The translations under genes were made by a program, and so were the position numbers. The notes beneath the pieces were generated by a model. It made no database searches. It had not been told where the DNA came from and was given only the letters and a program-made list of their open reading frames with translations. From assembly GCA_963717145.1 (NCBI GenBank), contig OY970325.1, positions 1,024,001-1,088,000 on the forward strand: a DNA stretch of 64,000 nucleotides, read 5' to 3'. The stretch comes from an uncultured Armatimonadetes bacterium (lineage in GTDB: Bacteria > Armatimonadota > UBA5829 > DTJY01). The first letter of the stretch is position 1, and each line of letters opens with the position of its first letter. Positions 37,732-44,174 of the stretch are shown in pieces.

Positions 37732-39324
37732 ATGGCATACGACCCAAGATCGACATACAGGCAGTTCATGGCTCACGAGTCCCTCCGATGTATACCCACT
37801 GATAAGGCGATCATGTACGTGGGAGCGCTTGTTGATACATCACACGACTTGAGAGAGGAAGCTGGACTGGAACGCGCAATAACTTGGGCGTCCGAACTAT
37901 GGCCAACCGGCCTTAGCGACAGACAGAGACTCCTGCTGGACTATTTCACATCCAACGCATGGGCGGATCTCCTGGAGTTGCGTACAAAGGGCACAGACAA
38001 GCGTTTCGACTGGAATCAGGAGGAATCGGAGAGGCAGGTCTTCCATCTGCGCCGGGCGTACGCCAACAAGGCGTTCGAGGGATCCGAGCAGATGAGGCAG
38101 TGCCAGATACTGACGAACCTTGGCAACTCCCTAAGCCACATCGGCAGATTCGTCGAAGCAGTAGAATACTGGGACAGGGCCCTGGCGATCGACCCAGATT
38201 TCGGAATGGCGGTTGGGAATCGTGGCCACGGTCTTACCTACTACGCCTCCGCATTATACGATGATGGCCATCAGTTCCTGCTCTTGAAGCAAGCCAGATC
38301 GGCATTGTCCAGGGCTCTATCCTTGGCGCTGGAACCAGGAGCACAACCACGGTTCGAGAAGCGGTTGGCGGAGATCGACCGTTCGCTAGGCACGAAAGGT
38401 CTTGCAGCCACAGTGGATATGGATGTTTTTTCGCTCGGCCGTTCAAAGGCTGAGTCCGGCTACAGGCGGTGGTGTCTGCAGAACCGGCTATTCCTCAACC
38501 CGCTGAATGACTTGGGAGTCCATTCAATTGCGGCGACCGATGTTCTTTCCACCCCTTCCATAGTCACGCCACTGGATCATGGCTGTGGATACCAGGGGTT
38601 CTTCAACCAAATGAAGCAGGAGTTTGTGTCAGCTCGGTATCTGTACTATGAAGGGATCAGCCTCGGCCGGCCACATTACTCAGACAAGGATGTTCTTCTC
38701 CTGGACACGCTGGACTATCCTGAGTATTCTGTCTCGGTCGAGAAAGGGAAGGCTGCATTTCGCATGGCCTATTCGCTTCTTGACAAGATCGCGTGGTTCC
38801 TTGTCGTTTACCTGGACATCAAGAGCAAGCTCAAAGCTGGAGAGCTCAGGAGAGTAAGCTTCCGCAACATCTGGTACAAGGGCCTTTCAAGGTCTGGCGG
38901 CTTGTGGAGTGACCTGCAGCAATGCCAGAACTGGCCGATGAGGGGCCTGTTCTGGCTAAGTAAGGACTTGTATGAGGAAAGACCGGAGTTTCGGGATTCC
39001 ATGGAACCCGATGCAAAGCAGCTTGCCGATGTGCGCAATCATCTGGAGCACAAGTACCTAAAGCTGCACGACTGTATGTGGATCGGAGAGGCATTCCTTG
39101 ATGATCCCACATGGCGGGCCTGCACCGATGACCTAGCGTTCTCCCTTTACCGCTCTGATTTCGAGGCGAAGACACTACGAATGTTAAAGATGGCCCGCGG
39201 TGCATTGATATACCTATCGTTGGCTATCCACCGCGAAGAACAGCGACGCAGCCAGGCAAGGGATGGCAAAGGTATCAGTGTACCGATGTTTCTCGATGCC
39301 TACGACGATAAGTGGAAGCGCTGA
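37732..39324 (+). CDS. TPR + LA2681-like HEPN domain protein (putative defence RNase)
   Basis: TPR TNLGNSL..GRFVEAVEYWDRALAIDP; FLNPLNDL, FNQMKQEFVSARY, YSLLDKIA; Rx4H motif RNHLEH. Confidence 0.8.
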   Translation: MAYDPRSTYRQFMAHESLRCIPTDKAIMYVGALVDTSHDLREEAGLERAITWASELWPTGLSDRQRLLLDYFTSNAWADLLELRTKGTDKRFDWNQEESERQVFHLRRAYANKAFEGSEQMRQCQILTNLGNSLSHIGRFVEAVEYWDRALAIDPDFGMAVGNRGHGLTYYASALYDDGHQFLLLKQARSALSRALSLALEPGAQPRFEKRLAEIDRSLGTKGLAATVDMDVFSLGRSKAESGYRRWCLQNRLFLNPLNDLGVHSIAATDVLSTPSIVTPLDHGCGYQGFFNQMKQEFVSARYLYYEGISLGRPHYSDKDVLLLDTLDYPEYSVSVEKGKAAFRMAYSLLDKIAWFLVVYLDIKSKLKAGELRRVSFRNIWYKGLSRSGGLWSDLQQCQNWPMRGLFWLSKDLYEERPEFRDSMEPDAKQLADVRNHLEHKYLKLHDCMWIGEAFLDDPTWRACTDDLAFSLYRSDFEAKTLRMLKMARGALIYLSLAIHREEQRRSQARDGKGISVPMFLDAYDDKWKR

Positions 39325-39368
39325 CCTGACTTGCCTGGAGACGGTAAGGCGAATCTGCCGGAAAGCGC

Positions 39369-40967
39369 CTAGAGCCCCAACTCCGTCTGTTCCCCGTCGC
39401 GGACGAGCTTCTTGCCGCCGCTGCGGAGTGACCAGCCGCGCGGGAAATCGAACTCCTTGCCCTCCAGCAACTCCTTGATCGTGCGAATCTGGAACTTGGG
39501 GATCTTCCGCCCGCTTGGGGAATCGAAGAAGCCAAGCTCCTCCGCGCGCTGATACATCCCCTTCGTCGGCGTGTCCAGGCAGATGAAGAAGCCCATCGCC
39601 GCCTTCTCACGCTCGATCACGTGGGCGAAGGCGTCGATATCTCCCGTCTTGAGATGGCCGCCCTTGACCTGGCAGACCGCATAGCGGTGTTCCCGGTTCT
39701 CATCGCCGAAGTAGACTTTGCCGTCTACGCCCTTGTCGCCGCTCTTTTCCGGCTGCGGAACGCCCGCGACTAGGCCGACCGCCCATATCTCGAACTGCTT
39801 CGGGCTCTGGTCGAAGAGCTGGTACGCAGAGTATTCGTCCTTCGGGTCGCCAATGATGTCGTAGTCCTTCTCGCGCTTGAGGCCGAAGTCCTTGGCAAGG
39901 CGGCTCATCATCAGGTCGATGGCGATGAAGGTGATGTCTATGCCGATCCACTTCCGACCAAGCTTCTCCGCCGCCACAACCGCGGTTCCGCACCCACAGA
40001 AGGGGTCGAACACGATATCGCCAGGGTTCGAGGATGCATTGATCATCCGTTCCAAGAGCGCCAGAGGCTTTTGGGTTGGGTAGCCCATACGTTCCTGCGC
40101 CATGGAGTTGATGGGAGAAATGTCCGTCCAGACGTTACCCATAAGCGTTCCCGGCATCTCGTCTAGATAGCGCTTGAACTGAATCCTGCCCTCGGGTTTC
40201 TTGGGGAAGGACAACCGCCCTTCTTGGTCCAACTGCTCCATCTTCTCACGGCTGACGGCCCAACCGTTAGGGTGTGGCTTGTACCCTTTGTAGTCGTAGG
40301 TCAGGTTTGGCCTTGGGTTGGGGCTTCTCAGGTCGCTTAGCCGATATCGCCGCCCGCCCTCATCCTGGTAGCGATATTTCGATTCCAGGTAGGCATCTGA
40401 ATGGGGAACGTACTGCGGGCAGAACATGTGCTGGTCAGTCTTGGTGAAGAGCAAGATAGTATCGGCAATGTCCGCGAACTTCTTCTTGGCATCACTGTGT
40501 GCGGTCGTGCGCTTCCAGGTCAACTCGTTCACGAAGTTCGTCGGCCCGAAGACCACGTCCAGTATGATCTTGAGGTAGTGGCTTGCCACCGGGTCGCAGT
40601 GCAGATAGAGGCTGCCCGTCGGTCTGAGGACGCGGTGGAGTTCCAGGAGGCGGGGGGCCATCATCACGAGATATGCCATCATCTCGCTTGTCCCGAGGAT
40701 GTCGTGCAGTGAGTTCATGAGCGGGAATAGCCGTGCATTCTTGGGCTCGTCAAAGAACTCATCGTAATGGCGCTTGCTCCACTGCCAGGTGTCGGTGAAG
40801 GCGGTGATCTGCGCCTGGTTCTCGTCCTTCTTCGCCTGCTTGAAGAGGACGTTGTAGTCCCGCGCGGAGTTGAACGGCGGGTCGAGGTAGACGAGATCAA
40901 CCGATTCGTCCGCGATGTGCTCGCGCATGATCTCCAGGTTGTCACCGTAGTAGAGCGTGTTCCTCAT
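39369..40967 (-). CDS. N6/N4 DNA methyltransferase fused to Mrr-like endonuclease domain
   Basis: YLDPPFNS, YPTQKP, DPFCGCGT (beta order); C-terminal QFEIWAV, GDKGVDG, QVKGG. Confidence 0.88.
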   Translation of the reverse strand: MRNTLYYGDNLEIMREHIADESVDLVYLDPPFNSARDYNVLFKQAKKDENQAQITAFTDTWQWSKRHYDEFFDEPKNARLFPLMNSLHDILGTSEMMAYLVMMAPRLLELHRVLRPTGSLYLHCDPVASHYLKIILDVVFGPTNFVNELTWKRTTAHSDAKKKFADIADTILLFTKTDQHMFCPQYVPHSDAYLESKYRYQDEGGRRYRLSDLRSPNPRPNLTYDYKGYKPHPNGWAVSREKMEQLDQEGRLSFPKKPEGRIQFKRYLDEMPGTLMGNVWTDISPINSMAQERMGYPTQKPLALLERMINASSNPGDIVFDPFCGCGTAVVAAEKLGRKWIGIDITFIAIDLMMSRLAKDFGLKREKDYDIIGDPKDEYSAYQLFDQSPKQFEIWAVGLVAGVPQPEKSGDKGVDGKVYFGDENREHRYAVCQVKGGHLKTGDIDAFAHVIEREKAAMGFFICLDTPTKGMYQRAEELGFFDSPSGRKIPKFQIRTIKELLEGKEFDFPRGWSLRSGGKKLVRDGEQTELGL

Positions 40968-41028
40968 ATAGAGGACAATACGTCGGCGGGCGGCTGCTTT
41001 CCTTCATGCCATGCTGAGGAAGAGAGGT

Positions 41029-41056
41029 GAGGGGCGCTCCAGTGGGAACGCCCCTC
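41029..41056 (-). terminator. Hairpin downstream of the 221-aa gene
   Basis: GAGGGGCGTTCC-CACT-GGAGCGCCCCTC followed by a pyrimidine run. Confidence 0.5.
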
Positions 41057-41067
41057 GGTGGTGCGGG

Positions 41068-41733
41068 TTAGGCGGCAATTGTCGCGGAGACGGTCTCGGA
41101 CCAGGGGCCGGCCTCGCCACGACTGCCCATCCATCTGAGCATGTAGTGGGCCTTCTTCCCGCCGTCCGCTCCGTCGTGAACCACCGTGAACGGACTCCGA
41201 GTCGCCATTCCGACGAACGATACTTCCGTGCCGTCGACCGGCGGAGGGCCGTCGATCTTCACCCAGACCTCACAGCCGATCACACCGTCGGGCTTTGCGT
41301 TGCCCATGGTTCCGCTGTTGTTGCGGAACCCAACGCTGTGACGCAGCCGCTCGCTCGTGTCTACCCATCCGAGCGGATGAGTCGCAGGCGTCGAAGCGGT
41401 GGTCTGCCTAGGCGCGCGAACGGTTATCCCCATCGCCTGCCGCTTCGTGTCGTCTACAAGCGGACTGGCCTGCAGCCTGGCAACCAGCGCCCGGAGGCTT
41501 GCCGTAAGGATGTCGCGCTGCTCAACCTTCTGCTCACGCTTGCTCCTCGCGTTTGCCTGGGCCGTGGTATGCTGCCCATATGCGAAGTCCCAGTTCGTCT
41601 GCTCCTGCACGATGAAATCGACGTCCGTCGCCTCGAGTCCGAGTTCAATCAGGTGGGCGCTAACATAAGTGAGGAAGTTCGCTACCCAGGGAGTGAACTC
41701 CCCATCGGCAGACGGAATATAATCGTGTCCCAT
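41068..41733 (-). CDS. Uncharacterised protein: N-terminal helical region plus C-terminal FN3-like beta domain
   Basis: AAGGAGGTG RBS; DYIP..DGEF..W..NF start; HYMLRWMGSRGEAGPWSETVSATI end. Confidence 0.8.
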   Translation of the reverse strand: MGHDYIPSADGEFTPWVANFLTYVSAHLIELGLEATDVDFIVQEQTNWDFAYGQHTTAQANARSKREQKVEQRDILTASLRALVARLQASPLVDDTKRQAMGITVRAPRQTTASTPATHPLGWVDTSERLRHSVGFRNNSGTMGNAKPDGVIGCEVWVKIDGPPPVDGTEVSFVGMATRSPFTVVHDGADGGKKAHYMLRWMGSRGEAGPWSETVSATIAA

Positions 41734-41820
41734 ACTGTCACCTCCTTCCGACTGCTAGAGTAACCATATTATCGGCGAATCCATGGGGGATCCATAGAGG
41801 ATTCTCTGCTGTGCATGCAG

Positions 41821-42093
41821 ATGCGTCCGGGCGCGGGCGTTGACCGACCGGGGCAACGAGCGGGGTCTCCGGCGAAGGACTCCGGACGTCCGGCGAAGCT
41901 CCGCCTCCGGGCGGCGCGCCTTCCGGGACGTCCGGAGAGGTCTCCGGCCCGTATGGCGAGGTTCGCGGGACGTCCGGGGAGGTCTCCGGCCCGTATGGCG
42001 AGGTTCGCGGGACGTCCGGGGGAGTTCGCCGGGTCTCCGGGGAAGTGTGCCGCCTGTATGGCGACCTTCCGCTTCCGGGCGGGGAAGTTCGGC
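41821..42093. repeat. 13 x 21-bp periodic array containing two near-identical 42-bp dimers
   Basis: Units such as GGACGTCCGGAGAGGTCTCCG and GCCCGTATGGCGAGGTTCGCG; YGG at positions 8-10 in every unit; no indels. Confidence 0.85.
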
Positions 42094-42154
42094 GGAAGGC
42101 GGGTGGGGCGGGATCCACGCTCGGAGAGGGGCGAACGGCGGCCCTTGCCACGTC

Positions 42155-43996
42155 CTACATGGGTTTGGCCCACCACTGCGGGTCCACATCCGCGAAGAGG
42201 CAGTCGCGCTCTTCGAGGACCTTGTAGGCGTCCCAGTCCTTCTGGTCGATGGGGACGCCGGACGCCTTCTTGCGGATGAGTGAGGCCAGCTTCTGGAAGC
42301 TCTTGTAGTGATCGGTGAGCCGCGACTCGCCGTAGTCCTTCGACGCCCTGGTCGAGATGCTGAACTGCCAGTCGGAGGATTGGAGGAGGAGCAGCTCCCT
42401 CGCCGCCTGCTTGAGGATCGGGAGCACCTCGGGGTTGTCGCCGAACTTCGCCACGAGATCCTGCATCTCCAACTCGGCATCGTAGACGCACGGCCACGTC
42501 CACTCGGTCTCCTGATTGAGCCACATGTAGTGGAAGCCGCCCTCGCCCCACGATCCCTCAGGGAGCGCTATGCTCGCGGTCGGGGGATTCGCCTCCAGGT
42601 ACTCCGAGCAGGTCACGAGTTGCACGTCGGGCGAGTCGGCCATCCCCTTGAGGACGTGGTAGAGCCAGCGAGTCCCCTCGAACCACCAGTGGCCGAACAA
42701 CTCCGAGTCGTATGGCGCGCAGATGACTCCCGGAGTGCCCTTCACCTCCGCGTAGGCGTCCAGGATATCGCCAGAGAGTTGTACAAAGTGTTCCGCGTGG
42801 GCGCGGATTCTCTCGTCGGCCTTCTCGGGATCGTAGCACTCCTTGTCGCCGAGATCGGCATTCGGACCGGTCACCCGCCAGTACTTCAAGCCGCCCGGTG
42901 TGTGCTTCTTGTGGAATTCGAGATACCATTCGTCGCCGGGGTAGCCGGTCGCGCGGCTCCAGACCTGCTGCCCGGTAGCGTCGTCGCGGAAGAAGACGGC
43001 GATGGGGGGACTCGAGGCGTCCGCATCAGATCCCACGGCTGTAGGGGCGCGCCTTGTGCCGCCCGGCGGGTCACCCACGGCGTCCTCGGGCGGCACAAGG
43101 CGCGCCCCTACAGCCGTGGGCGGCGCTGCCGAAGCATCCGCGTGCGCGGATTCCACGAGGTACGCAGCGTAGGGAGTCTTGCCCGCTGGGAAATCGGTCG
43201 TGACCGCATATTCCTTCCACGTGTCCTCCAGCGCGCCGAAGCGGTCGATATAGACGCCCCTCGTCTCGCCGCCGTGGAGGAGATGCGATTCGGCGAGAAA
43301 GAACTTCAAGCCGCTCTCCGCGAGGAACTCCTCGACCCCCCGGCGATCACACGGATCGATGGTGCGCCCCTTCGGCTGAACGGGCGGCGACCACCGGTAT
43401 CCCGGGCGGTATGCGCACTCGGGCAGCCAGTATCCCTGAGGCGCGCGGCCGAAATGCTTCCGGTAGGTGGCGACCCCCTGCCGAACCTGCGCCTGAATGC
43501 TCGCGTCCTGGGAGAGGAGCGGGGAGTAGCCGTGCGTCGCAGAACTCGTGATGATCTCGATGTGCCCGGCATCCTGGAGCGCGGCAAATGCGCCGATGAG
43601 CGACTTCTGGTAGCGCTTCTTGAAGCGGTCCATGATGCCCGAGTACAACTCATGCCAGAAGTCCGCCTGCCGGGCGCAGGACTCGTTGTTCAGTCGGGCG
43701 AAGGTCCGCTTGTCGTTCGCGGCGGCCTTGATCTGCTCGCGGAGGTAGGCCTGGAACTCGTACTTGAAGCTGGTATCGGCGAGCTGCTCCGCGAGTACGG
43801 GGGTGATGCCGATCGTGATCCTCGGGGAGTATCCCTCCTCGACTAGGTCGTACAGCGCATCGAGGAGCGGGACGTAGGACGACGCGGCAACCTCGTGCAG
43901 CCAACTCGTGCCGTGGGGCCACCGTCCGTGCGAGAGCACGTATGGTATATGCGAGTGCAGCACAAATGCGAATGATCCGGGCATGGCAGCGGGCAA
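42155..43996 (-). CDS. GH57 1,4-alpha-glucan branching enzyme (DUF1957)
   Basis: VLHSHIPYV, ATHGYSPL, YWLPECAY, YDSELFGHWWFEG, RELLLLQSSDW; TTG start after AAGGAG (alternative ATG 43984). Confidence 0.92.
   Translation of the reverse strand: MPAAMPGSFAFVLHSHIPYVLSHGRWPHGTSWLHEVAASSYVPLLDALYDLVEEGYSPRITIGITPVLAEQLADTSFKYEFQAYLREQIKAAANDKRTFARLNNESCARQADFWHELYSGIMDRFKKRYQKSLIGAFAALQDAGHIEIITSSATHGYSPLLSQDASIQAQVRQGVATYRKHFGRAPQGYWLPECAYRPGYRWSPPVQPKGRTIDPCDRRGVEEFLAESGLKFFLAESHLLHGGETRGVYIDRFGALEDTWKEYAVTTDFPAGKTPYAAYLVESAHADASAAPPTAVGARLVPPEDAVGDPPGGTRRAPTAVGSDADASSPPIAVFFRDDATGQQVWSRATGYPGDEWYLEFHKKHTPGGLKYWRVTGPNADLGDKECYDPEKADERIRAHAEHFVQLSGDILDAYAEVKGTPGVICAPYDSELFGHWWFEGTRWLYHVLKGMADSPDVQLVTCSEYLEANPPTASIALPEGSWGEGGFHYMWLNQETEWTWPCVYDAELEMQDLVAKFGDNPEVLPILKQAARELLLLQSSDWQFSISTRASKDYGESRLTDHYKSFQKLASLIRKKASGVPIDQKDWDAYKVLEERDCLFADVDPQWWAKPM
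43032..43120. repeat. REPIN (GTAGGGGCGYGCCTTGTGCCGCCCG) inside the GH57 coding sequence
   Basis: Perfect 34-bp IR with a 21-nt spacer; same family at 44068-44174. Confidence 0.9.
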
Positions 43997-44067
43997 GGTG
44001 GGACGCTCCTTTCGACTATTCGAGGATAACATATGCACCCCGACCTGTCAACGCGGAGACGGCAGAG

Positions 44068-44174
44068 GTCTGTAGGGGCGTGCCTTGTGCCGCCCGGTGC
44101 GGGGTTCGCGGGCGGCACAAGGCACGCCCCTACAGACGGCTTGTCGTTCCGGGCGGCACGAGGCACGCCCCTAC
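44068..44174. repeat. REPIN plus an extra REP unit, same family as 43032-43120
   Basis: GTCTGTAGGGGCGTGCCTTGTGCCGCCCG ... CGGGCGGCACAAGGCACGCCCCTACAGAC, then a third copy. Confidence 0.85.

Follow-up and report, generated by a model that had tools for sequence, protein, structure and literature searches.

Tandem 21-bp repeats upstream of a gene family with a predicted FN3 domain: a recurrent gene-plus-array module in bacteria

Does a tandem-repeat array lying directly upstream of a gene belong to that gene and, if so, what does it do? The question is raised by a locus in a 64,000-nucleotide stretch of DNA (the window) from an uncultured Armatimonadetes bacterium. Here, a gene for a 221-aa acidic protein, delineated from the ORF list, homologs, and a structure model, occupies positions 41068-41733 of the minus strand. 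Next to it, at positions 41821-42093, thirteen 21-bp units form a non-coding tandem array, found by in-register cutting and autocorrelation and assigned to neither strand.

When 41821-42093 is cut every 21 nt, exactly 13 units result and no indels are needed. Positions 8-10 of the unit read CGG or TGG in 13/13 units, and the 7-nt heads of the units are reused: GGACGTC four times, GGGTCTC twice, GCCYGTA three times, and YTCCGGG twice. A 42-bp dimer is duplicated at 41926-42009, and Tandem Repeats Finder reports 41924-42021 with a period of 42, 2.3 copies, and 98% matches. The original prediction, made from the letters of the sequence, had described 13 indel-free 21-nt units with an invariant YGG, shuffled 7-nt sub-blocks, and one duplicated 42-bp dimer, all of which is confirmed by these counts. 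Autocorrelation over 41740-42155 gives values of 0.458, 0.489, and 0.479 at lags 21, 42, and 63, against 0.22-0.36 at every other lag from 1 to 70. The outer units are degenerate, and a 60%-match detector accepts only the central, best-conserved core (about 41898-42068).

Unlike CRISPR arrays, the units are arranged head to tail without spacers, and no cas family occurs among the neighbours scanned. Unlike REP, BIME, or REPIN elements, the array sequence has a single occurrence in the 5.37-Mb genome, remaining matches being to itself or at E >= 0.8. The array had been supposed from the outset to be neither CRISPR nor REP, and so it proved. Rfam gave no match on the array; its only hits were weak ones to microRNA models, on a REP-like palindrome within the adjacent GH57 gene. 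The true REP-like element of this genome is another sequence, found in 106 places.

A ribosome-binding site for the gene, GGAGG (41741-41745, minus strand), lies 8 nt before the ATG in the spacer that separates array and gene (41734-41820, minus strand, read from the sequence). About 12 nt past the stop codon is a G+C-rich hairpin with an 8-bp stem (41029-41056, minus strand, likewise read off), the arms of which are GAGGGGCG and CGCCCCTC. It is possibly a terminator without a T-tract; a consensus terminator scan did not call it because a T run is absent. The N-terminus of the protein, as read off the sequence, is not hydrophobic. A strong Shine-Dalgarno sequence, a hairpin of the gene's own, and the lack of a signal peptide had all been predicted, as had a “helical/FN3-like” protein, and this description agrees with the structure model (pLDDT 87). 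In the model, an N-terminal helical hairpin (helices 10-26 and 35-89) is joined by a linker to a C-terminal half (about 112-221) that is a canonical, seven-stranded FN3 beta-sandwich. VIA-align superposes this half on 4yfe_B with a Z of 12.4 and an rmsd of 2.2 Å over 99 residues; among the matches listed, 50/50 entries are FN3 or FN3-like (Z 10.5-12.4), and Foldseek FN3 matches have E values from 1.2e-4 (about 1e-4) to 1e-3.

At the level of sequence, the Pfam fn3 model does not match the protein, and the 221-aa ORF has no match in Pfam, PHROG, NCBIfam, or PADLOC. The best hit in a PDB sequence search is not below E 0.76. The ESM Atlas offers unnamed clusters only, one with fn3 on 18% of its members, and the search for longer fused forms of the family, a weak line of evidence, found none. 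Homologs number 289 of 622 candidates at E <= 0.001. They belong to an unannotated and very large family (3030 representatives, as representative clusters) that ranges over Planctomycetota, Acidobacteriota, Armatimonadota, cyanobacteria, Ignavibacteria, and others. The module is also present in an isolate, Oscillatoria sp. PCC 10802. The family is absent from the 72,556 plasmid records (PLSDB) and 50,697 phage records searched; IMG/VR holds five loci.

That array and gene form a single module, as the original prediction held, is strongly supported. An array with a lag of 21 is found in the 1 kb upstream of 51/73 homologous loci and in the 1 kb downstream of 1/73, while the other lags from 12 to 30 occur at 1-3 of the 73 loci. 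In other flank windows, lag-21 arrays appear at 0-4 of 54-65 loci, and the enrichment in homolog flanks is confined to lags 21 and 42. The host genome itself carries 25 paralogs, 23 of which have an upstream array: 24 arrays lie <= 700 nt upstream of 23/25 paralogs, where 0.28 would be expected by chance. These arrays have periods of 21, 22, 42, 43, or 44, each paralog has a different unit, and paralogs with arrays reach down to about 26% protein identity. Across the family's arrays, the number of units varies from 4.0 to 18.4, with a median of 7.7. In the closest relative (locus L009; 70% identical protein, GH57 upstream), an array is kept at the syntenic site. The original prediction had named as refuting it a lack of enriched periodic arrays in homolog flanks together with loss or unlinking of the array in close relatives; these results do not refute it. 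A repeat array of fixed spacing and free sequence before almost every family copy is strong evidence for function. The 43-bp unit array of one paralog (number 13) is reused, irrespective of orientation, at two further sites beside unrelated genes. No second protein family was found at the gene-less arrays of this genome, where 117 flanking ORFs of 32 arrays yielded three chance pairs. No description of such a gene-plus-array module was found in the literature searched.

Other neighbours are not shared. In the window, the unit is flanked on one side by a HEPN_LA2681+TPR gene (37732-39324) and an N6_N4 methylase with a Mrr-like tail (39369-40967), and on the other by a GH57 branching enzyme (42155-44038). 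The gene had been placed at the edge of a HEPN/methyltransferase block; the neighbours are as described, but the block is incidental, since L009 lies outside the methylase ORF cluster and no conserved neighbour or operon partner exists over 81 loci, where any ORF cluster besides the family itself occurs in <= 9/81. A Pfam scan of 136 of 144 flanking ORFs, the 8 longest being left out, returned varied families.

Paralog pairs show what is duplicated together. Three of them (L025/L027, L034/L040, and L053/L063) retain 88-98% identity over array, spacer, and coding sequence; identity in the flanks falls to 73-78% in the first pair and only to 86-93% in the other two. The unit of duplication is the module made up of the array, the spacer with its putative promoter, and the FN3 gene. 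Over the family at large, the period of the array is conserved while its sequence is not. The periods of 21, 22, 42, 43, and 44 bp correspond to two or four helical turns.

Many arrays are also symmetric. Units are dyad-symmetric at p <= 0.05 in 28/57 arrays and at p <= 0.01 in 12/57, the unit of the window array among them at the former level (p = 0.023). Mismatches between the arms are G:T in 276 cases and A:C in 333 with no strand bias, and compensatory covariation is nearly nil (709 pairs vs 684 +/- 12 expected; individually significant in 1/38 arrays). Since wobble pairs show no strand bias and covariation is almost lacking, two-fold protein sites fit these units better than hairpins do. 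A motif common to the arrays of all lineages was sought as well. Rotation alignment of 57 arrays gives 6.6 bits, vs 3.7-3.9 in controls, with a CCGCTG..CAGCGG-like consensus. When each 60%-identity protein cluster contributes a single array (14 clusters), the value is 5.66 vs 5.15-5.54; because the signal nearly vanishes, the motif was rejected as reflecting related loci and not the family as a whole.

A promoter probably lies between array and gene. Within the spacer are a -10-like hexamer, GATAAT (41768-41773, minus strand), and, at 41779-41802, an 11-nt direct repeat. Several paralogs have a CCGATAAT-like -10 motif at the same spacer position. In the window, the promoter is presumed rather than called, since a strict sigma-70 consensus scan of 40900-42400 returned none. 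Over the loci, the best sigma-70-like matches fall between array and gene on the gene strand in 10 cases vs 3 just upstream of arrays, consensus calls being weak in these phyla. Sigma-54 enhancers resemble the arrays in that dyad sites lie upstream of a promoter and act at a distance, but the -24/-12 motif (GG-N10-GC) is not enriched between the sites and the gene. At least 9/12 positions match <= 200 nt upstream on the gene strand in 3/78 loci vs 1-2 of 74-78 in controls, 8/12 match in 10 loci vs 11-14 in controls, and 10/12 in none; among the paralogs of the host genome the motif is found in 0/25. A sigma-54 promoter was thus set aside.

In the preferred, though tentative, explanation, the array would serve in cis as a DNA control platform, phased with the helix and placed before the gene's promoter. 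Its units would be short, often dyad-symmetric sites placed every 21 bp, and all would lie on one face of the DNA because 21 bp is two helix turns. The module of array, promoter-bearing spacer, and FN3 gene would be inherited and duplicated together. Most likely, proteins would bind along this extended platform, and it would set how strongly the FN3-family gene is transcribed, much as an operator or enhancer does. Presumably, it acts as DNA rather than RNA, is bound by protein, and controls transcription.

Such a platform might be read by a general architectural protein that senses how its sites are spaced and how symmetric they are, or else by the product of the cognate gene. The evidence leans against the latter, and with 25 different arrays in one genome it is difficult to picture any sequence-specific reader besides the cognate product. 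Several observations count against a platform. At one locus (L048), a near-consensus promoter lies just upstream of the array. Half of the arrays have no significant symmetry (p > 0.5 in 8/57, mostly cyanobacterial). Units of 10-11 or 31-32 bp, which would also be compatible with pure helical phasing, were not seen, and a half-unit (10-11 bp) rhythm is absent from the mean autocorrelation of 43 arrays. Predicted static curvature is slight only: an approximate wedge model gives an end-to-end/contour ratio of 0.957, where column-permuted arrays reach 0.967 and a phased A-tract control 0.494. Finally, the module has a single conserved gene, and its product is an acidic FN3 protein without a known DNA-binding fold.

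Alternatively, the array might have no reader at all and be a mutable, promoter-proximal minisatellite, an explanation that is unlikely. In one version it would be a contingency element through which a gene family with many copies is tuned or switched in expression by changes in repeat number; in the other, a satellite homogenized by unequal exchange and kept by descent, in which the period persists while the sequence drifts. Contingency loci, e.g., the 7-bp repeats upstream of the hmw genes of Haemophilus, include multi-copy families with repeat-controlled expression; in the known cases, the tracts have units of 1-7 bp and are a single-species feature. As in those loci, the arrays lie near the promoter of multi-copy family members and vary in copy number by locus (4-18 units). 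Array turnover, moreover, is faster than that of the spacer or coding sequence. For example, identities in L020/L061 are 95% for the coding sequence, 89% for the spacer, and 76% for the array, and in L022/L088 they are 92%, 81%, and 71%. L034 and L035 represent one locus as found in two assemblies; identity between them is 100% in the flanks and 94.7% in the array. In contrast to contingency repeats, the unit measures 21 bp, different phyla keep this length, and units are often dyad-symmetric, an excess beyond drift alone. Units of 21 bp at about 70-95% identity also slip far less than 1-7-bp tracts, and deletion-prone genomes should shed neutral repeats, yet arrays persist at most loci in several phyla and at 23/25 paralogs.

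Rather unlikely is an RNA partnership in which the array is transcribed and its 21-22-nt units partner the protein, in the manner of type III toxin-antitoxin (TA) systems (toxIN, cptIN, tenpIN) or of some other RNA-protein module, with one orthogonal pair per paralog. Type III loci are chromosomal, often in several copies, and located in variable regions, the repeat being specific to each homolog; the unit is 31-62 nt in 1.9-5.6 copies in the three known families (PMC3401426, Table 2). The module resembles the loci described there in having tandem direct repeats immediately upstream of a stand-alone gene (51/73; 23/25), with homolog-specific repeats and 25 paralogs in one genome. The genes around homologs differ from locus to locus and often recall defence systems (SIR2-STAND, methylases, Vsr, MamI, PLD, SLATT, TIR, caspase, Fic), and predicted folding of the arrays is stronger than that of shuffled sequences (median z -2.3 sense, -3.2 antisense). 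On the gene strand, G slightly exceeds C (51 vs 25 of 80 arrays, 4 ties; p 0.03, arrays not being independent), which points the same way. So does L048, where the promoter before the array would transcribe it and hairpins follow the array. Against this, the units measure 21-22 nt (dimers 42-44) in 4.0-18.4 copies, unlike those of the tabulated families. The protein, an acidic helical hairpin plus FN3 without a Pfam or PADLOC match, is not a ToxN/AbiQ/CptN/TenpN endoribonuclease. The promoter-like sites mostly follow the array, subject to the same weakness of scans in these phyla. Terminator-like sites between array and gene are inconsistent (8/56 loci on the gene strand vs 6/56 on the other), the same scan finding only 8/54 at the genes' own 3′ ends. 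Neither folding (35 arrays favour sense vs 21 antisense, no preference) nor wobble pairing favours a strand, covariation is almost nil, and the window array is not significantly structured relative to shuffles (z -1.0 and -1.7). Near-identical proteins, in addition, can have unrelated arrays.

This last observation also bears on whether the protein binds its own array sequence-specifically, for autoregulation or in a partition- or iteron-like assembly, with 25 cognate pairs in the genome; this is quite improbable. No gene but the FN3 gene invariably accompanies the array, the unit differs from one paralog to the next, and the long helix 35-89 might, by inference from the model, dimerize to fit dyad units. 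The more alike two proteins are, the more alike their arrays (r 0.49 over 1596 pairs), a correlation that is a little stronger when N-terminal halves are compared (0.52) than with C-terminal halves (0.44), and some paralogs with near-identical C-terminal halves differ in both N-terminal halves and arrays. Common descent alone, however, would yield such a correlation. The proteins of L045 and L064 are 92% identical, with 17 scattered and mostly conservative differences, yet their arrays and spacers are unrelated; those of L031 and L076 are 88% identical with an array similarity of 0.52. The pI is 5.96 for the 221-aa protein and 4.65-6.07 in 20 homologs, the net charge of the N-terminal half is 0 to -10, and fold searches (Foldseek, VIA-align) found no nucleic-acid-binding fold. 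The suggestion in the original prediction that the protein reads the array as DNA or RNA is thus not supported by pI, fold, or the L045/L064 pair.

Plasmid and phage systems provide precedents for self-binding. Iterons (R6K, pSC101, P1, F, RK2) are direct repeats of ~17-22 bp, replicon-specific in sequence, beside the gene for the Rep protein that reads them. The module likewise has repeats about two helical turns apart beside a gene, with a locus-specific sequence; it differs in its 25 chromosomal copies, the lack of plasmid or phage matches, the lack of a winged-helix Rep fold, and its many more, and more degenerate, units. Partition centromeres, such as F sopC (12 x 43 bp with inverted repeats) and R1 parC (10 x 11 bp), are arrays that double as operators. 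They too are long arrays of short dyad sites beside a small-protein gene, and some module units measure 42-44 bp. The module is, however, chromosomal and multi-copy, has no ParA/ParM/TubZ-type NTPase neighbour over 81 loci, and encodes a protein that fold searches place in neither the ribbon-helix-helix nor the ParB type. None of the known repeat-plus-gene systems fits the module.

In a broader form, pairing would mean that the array and the gene product belong together as nucleic acid and cognate protein, in a pair of a kind not seen before, each FN3 paralog recognizing, or being checked by, its own 21-nt-unit repeat, whether DNA or RNA. This lies on the unlikely side. If true, a genome would hold some two dozen orthogonal pairs, and these would be addiction, self-recognition, or conflict modules of a new class, with a logic like that of type III TA and unrelated parts. 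The module would be one of three things: a bacterial control element read by its geometry and not its sequence, a new protein/nucleic-acid partnership, or a new mutable expression switch.

The remaining alternative, a coding array that yields a peptide or protein of heptad repeats or else the first part of the FN3 protein, can be dismissed as very improbable indeed: 21 nt is 7 codons and the window array is open in all six reading frames, but a register-anchored frame is open in at best 36/57 arrays (none on the gene strand in 10, none at all in 4), array variability has no 3-nt rhythm, five paralogs have periods of 22, 43, or 44 nt, which are not multiples of 3, and the putative peptides have nothing in common between loci. 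The arrays of the family are non-coding. They can nevertheless mislead annotation, as gene callers turn them into false heptad-repeat N-termini. For instance, ORFs were run through the arrays in P0141, P0222, and P0249, giving each protein such an N-terminus, and the array of L069 can be read as SEAKPKM repeats.

The array of the window spans positions 41821–42093, between the stop codon of a GH57 branching-enzyme gene (42155–44038, minus strand) and a 221-aa ORF (41068–41733, minus strand) that is preceded by a GGAGG ribosome-binding site and followed by a G+C-rich hairpin. Unit cutting yields 13 units of 21 nt without an indel, all 13 with YGG at unit positions 8–10, and 7-nt heads recur among them. 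Tandem Repeats Finder reports a 42-nt dimer (2.3 copies, 98%), and autocorrelation in the intergenic region is 0.46, 0.49 and 0.48 at lags of 21, 42 and 63 versus 0.22–0.36 at other lags. The in-register units with invariant YGG, the reused 7-nt sub-blocks, the duplicated 42-bp dimer and the gene with its own SD and hairpin were thus all correctly described in the original prediction, as was the array's unlikeness to CRISPR or REP sequences: its units have no spacers, and its sequence occurs once in its own genome, which is not the pattern of a dispersed REP. No Rfam family matches the array. An 11-nt direct repeat (2.2 copies) is located at 41779–41802, between the array and a −10-like hexamer of the gene.

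The array is non-coding. No register-anchored frame stays open across more than 36 of the 57 arrays, and in four of them no frame on either strand is open. Variability lacks a 3-nt rhythm, and five paralogs in the window's own genome have arrays with periods of 22, 43 or 44 nt. Three publicly predicted homologs (P0141, P0222 and P0249) have N-termini of 7- or 14-residue repeats, which are annotation artefacts generated when gene callers extended ORFs upstream through arrays.

Linkage of gene and array is real and wide. A relative of the 221-aa protein is encoded in 266 of 297 candidate stretches from species-representative genomes. The best 80 of these 266 loci were analyzed; many are mutually related, so that counts overstate independence. 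They represent Planctomycetota, Acidobacteriota (Pyrinomonadaceae), Armatimonadota, Ignavibacteria, cyanobacteria (including Hormoscilla, with six loci, and Oscillatoria PCC 10802) and others. Of the 78 loci with sufficient upstream DNA, 59 have 21, 42 or 63 as the top autocorrelation lag in the 500 nt upstream of the gene. With a detector requiring ≥60% identity at the lag in 42-nt windows and a span of ≥84 nt, lag-21 arrays were found within 1 kb upstream at 51 of 73 loci versus one of 73 downstream, and in 0–4 of 54–65 for other flank windows; control lags (12, 15, 18, 19, 20, 22, 23, 24, 27 and 30) gave 1–3 of 73. The upstream enrichment at lag 21 in homolog flanks, which the original prediction had proposed to examine, strongly supports its idea that gene and array form one unit. 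An array is also present in the closest relative, L009, whose protein is 70% identical and whose locus is syntenic, GH57 again lying upstream: this site has about six perfectly palindromic units unrelated in sequence to those of the window.

The window's own genome, probably of Armatimonadota judging by the best matches (50–59%) of a MiaB-like protein, encodes 25 paralogs of the family. Of these, 23 have arrays in the 700 nt upstream of them, 24 arrays in all compared with a chance expectation of 0.28. Array periods are 21, 22, 42, 43 or 44, and unit sequence differs from paralog to paralog. In total, 80 arrays exist at these periods, 25 of them short-period simple repeats, while about 30 non-simple arrays do not adjoin a family gene. 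Some of the latter adjoin GH99-like, beta-helix, LarA, TIR-NB-ARC-TPR and Kelch-transporter genes; ORFs flanking the gene-less arrays formed no second protein family. The 43-bp-unit array of paralog 13 is found at three sites on C1, outside the window (459576–459943, 546363–547014 and 1805350–1805683), sharing 88–96% identity in the array only. The two non-family sites adjoin GHL10/NPCBM and Mrr-like/KdpD genes, and at one of them the sole gene that the array precedes is on the opposite strand. Five paralogs (C1:460280, 1436737, 2876930, 4663789 and 5282019) are alike only in their C-terminal (FN3) halves, with 77–87% nucleotide identity and differing N-terminal halves and arrays. All five have arrays of period 22, 43 or 44, a pattern pointing to gene conversion or to a young subfamily whose period has shifted.

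Within-genome paralog pairs are 88–98% identical from array through gene. Flank identity falls to 73–78% for L025/L027 and only to 86–93% for L034/L040 and L053/L063. Since the array-to-gene span is more alike than its flanks, the module is the unit of duplication. L034 and L035 represent one locus as assembled twice; they agree fully in the spacer and the 200-nt flanks but only to 98.6% in the coding sequence and 94.7% in the array, reflecting either fast local change or assembly mixing of near-identical paralogs.

The best-supported reading, a tentative one, is that the array would serve as a phased protein-binding DNA platform. It is favored by the two-turn spacing, which includes periods incompatible with any reading frame, by two-fold symmetry in many arrays, by the lack of RNA-type signals and by the position upstream of a likely promoter. 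Static curvature alone and a one-turn rhythm were not supported. Period is the only universal trait, and distant loci have no common unit sequence; an apparent family-wide consensus was lost on reduction to 14 independent protein clusters. A mutable minisatellite without any reader is a rather unlikely alternative. Array turnover does exceed that of spacer or coding sequence. Within units, about 10 of 21 positions are conserved, mainly in the two arms, with variable spacers. Two related Pirellulales loci carry a second, different 21-nt repeat of the TTGAYTT...GCTAA type directly upstream of the main array (L031:2262–2387 and L050:5563–5730), with TTGACT/TTTACT hexamers 21 nt apart.

Dyad-symmetric units occur in 28 of 57 arrays at p ≤ 0.05 and in 12 at p ≤ 0.01 (p 0.023 for the window array); eight arrays, mostly cyanobacterial, have p above 0.5. 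Arm positions pair in common register in 1462 of 2926 cases versus 732–864 with the partner slid by 1–3 nt. Arm mismatches (G:T 276, A:C 333) show no strand bias. The sense strand folds better in 35 arrays and the antisense in 21, with neither strand better overall (median z −2.3 sense and −3.2 antisense; −1.0 and −1.7 for the window array). Units show hardly any compensatory covariation (709 pairs versus 684 ± 12 expected), with one of 38 arrays individually significant. Together, the mismatch, folding and covariation data favor two-fold DNA sites over selected hairpins, with RNA the less likely alternative. On the gene strand, G slightly outnumbers C (in 51 arrays, versus the reverse in 25 and four ties), although the arrays are not independent. 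A transcribed repeat partner following type III toxin–antitoxin logic is among the unlikely readings. Type III loci, like iterons and centromere arrays, have a similar layout, but the module fails a defining feature of each. No description of the module was found in the papers or preprints searched.

Consensus scans gave 10 sigma-70-like matches between array and gene, on the gene strand, versus three just before arrays. In L048, exceptionally, the array directly follows a near-consensus promoter. A strict sigma-70 scan gave no match in 40900–42400 of the window, and a CCGATAAT-like motif 35–100 nt before the start is common to several paralogs, including the window's. Neither terminator-like sites between array and gene nor sigma-54 motifs were enriched in these scans.

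The 221-aa ORF matched no Pfam, PHROG, NCBIfam or PADLOC family, and nothing below E 0.76 among PDB sequences. Of 622 candidates, 289 proteins have E ≤ 0.001; these are mostly 219–231 aa, 45–69% identical and annotated only as "hypothetical protein". At E ≤ 0.001 the family numbers 3030 representative clusters, and at 1e-10 it numbers 1203. An AlphaFold model built on 20 aligned homologs (pLDDT 87, pTM 0.48) predicts helices at 10–26 and 35–89 and a seven-strand sandwich, with an ill-defined linker between them. By structure comparison this sandwich is an FN3 domain of the canonical kind (Z 12.4, rmsd 2.2 Å over 99 residues; Foldseek E about 1e-4), and viral matches are FN3 domains of tail proteins; fold searches gave no informative match for the helical half. 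A search for longer fused forms gave none, a weak negative. With a pI of 4.65–6.07 in 20 homologs, the protein is acidic, and its N-terminal half has a net charge of 0 to −10. Binding of the encoded protein to its own cognate array, as DNA or RNA, had been proposed originally and is improbable: the L045 and L064 proteins share 92% identity and differ at 17 scattered positions, mostly conservatively, yet similarity between the two loci in array and spacer is at background (71–72%), and this one clear case, the acidity and the fold argue against sequence-specific reading by the encoded protein. Array similarity correlates with protein identity (r 0.49), as descent alone would produce.

No neighbor is conserved: apart from the family itself and its antisense shadows, no large ORF cluster emerged across 81 loci, and the next in size is a DNA methylase (9/81). 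Flanking genes are varied, as is typical of flexible genome regions, and include defense-like genes (SIR2-STAND, methylases, Vsr, MamI, PLD, SLATT, TIR, caspases, Fic and AbiEii-like), polysaccharide synthesis genes, transposases, phage tail-collar proteins and C39 peptidases. None of 50,697 phage or 72,556 plasmid records contains the family, and in IMG/VR it is rare (five loci). At 37732–40967 of the window, a HEPN_LA2681+TPR protein is encoded next to a convergent gene for an N6_N4 DNA methylase that carries a fused Mrr/NA-iREase-like domain, in what looks like a defense-type block. The HEPN/MTase block at whose edge the module was said to lie is present, but is not conserved beside the module in the closest relative.

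Within the GH57 ORF, a palindrome of approximately 82 nt with a GTAG head lies in frame at 43035–43116; its fold energy is −80 kcal/mol. A second copy is located at 44070–44135, and similar copies are found in 106 places in the genome. This palindrome accounts for weak Rfam microRNA matches on both strands. It interrupts the GH57 Pfam match, which covers only profile positions 1–174 in the window's GH57 protein, against 1–291 in the L009 ortholog.
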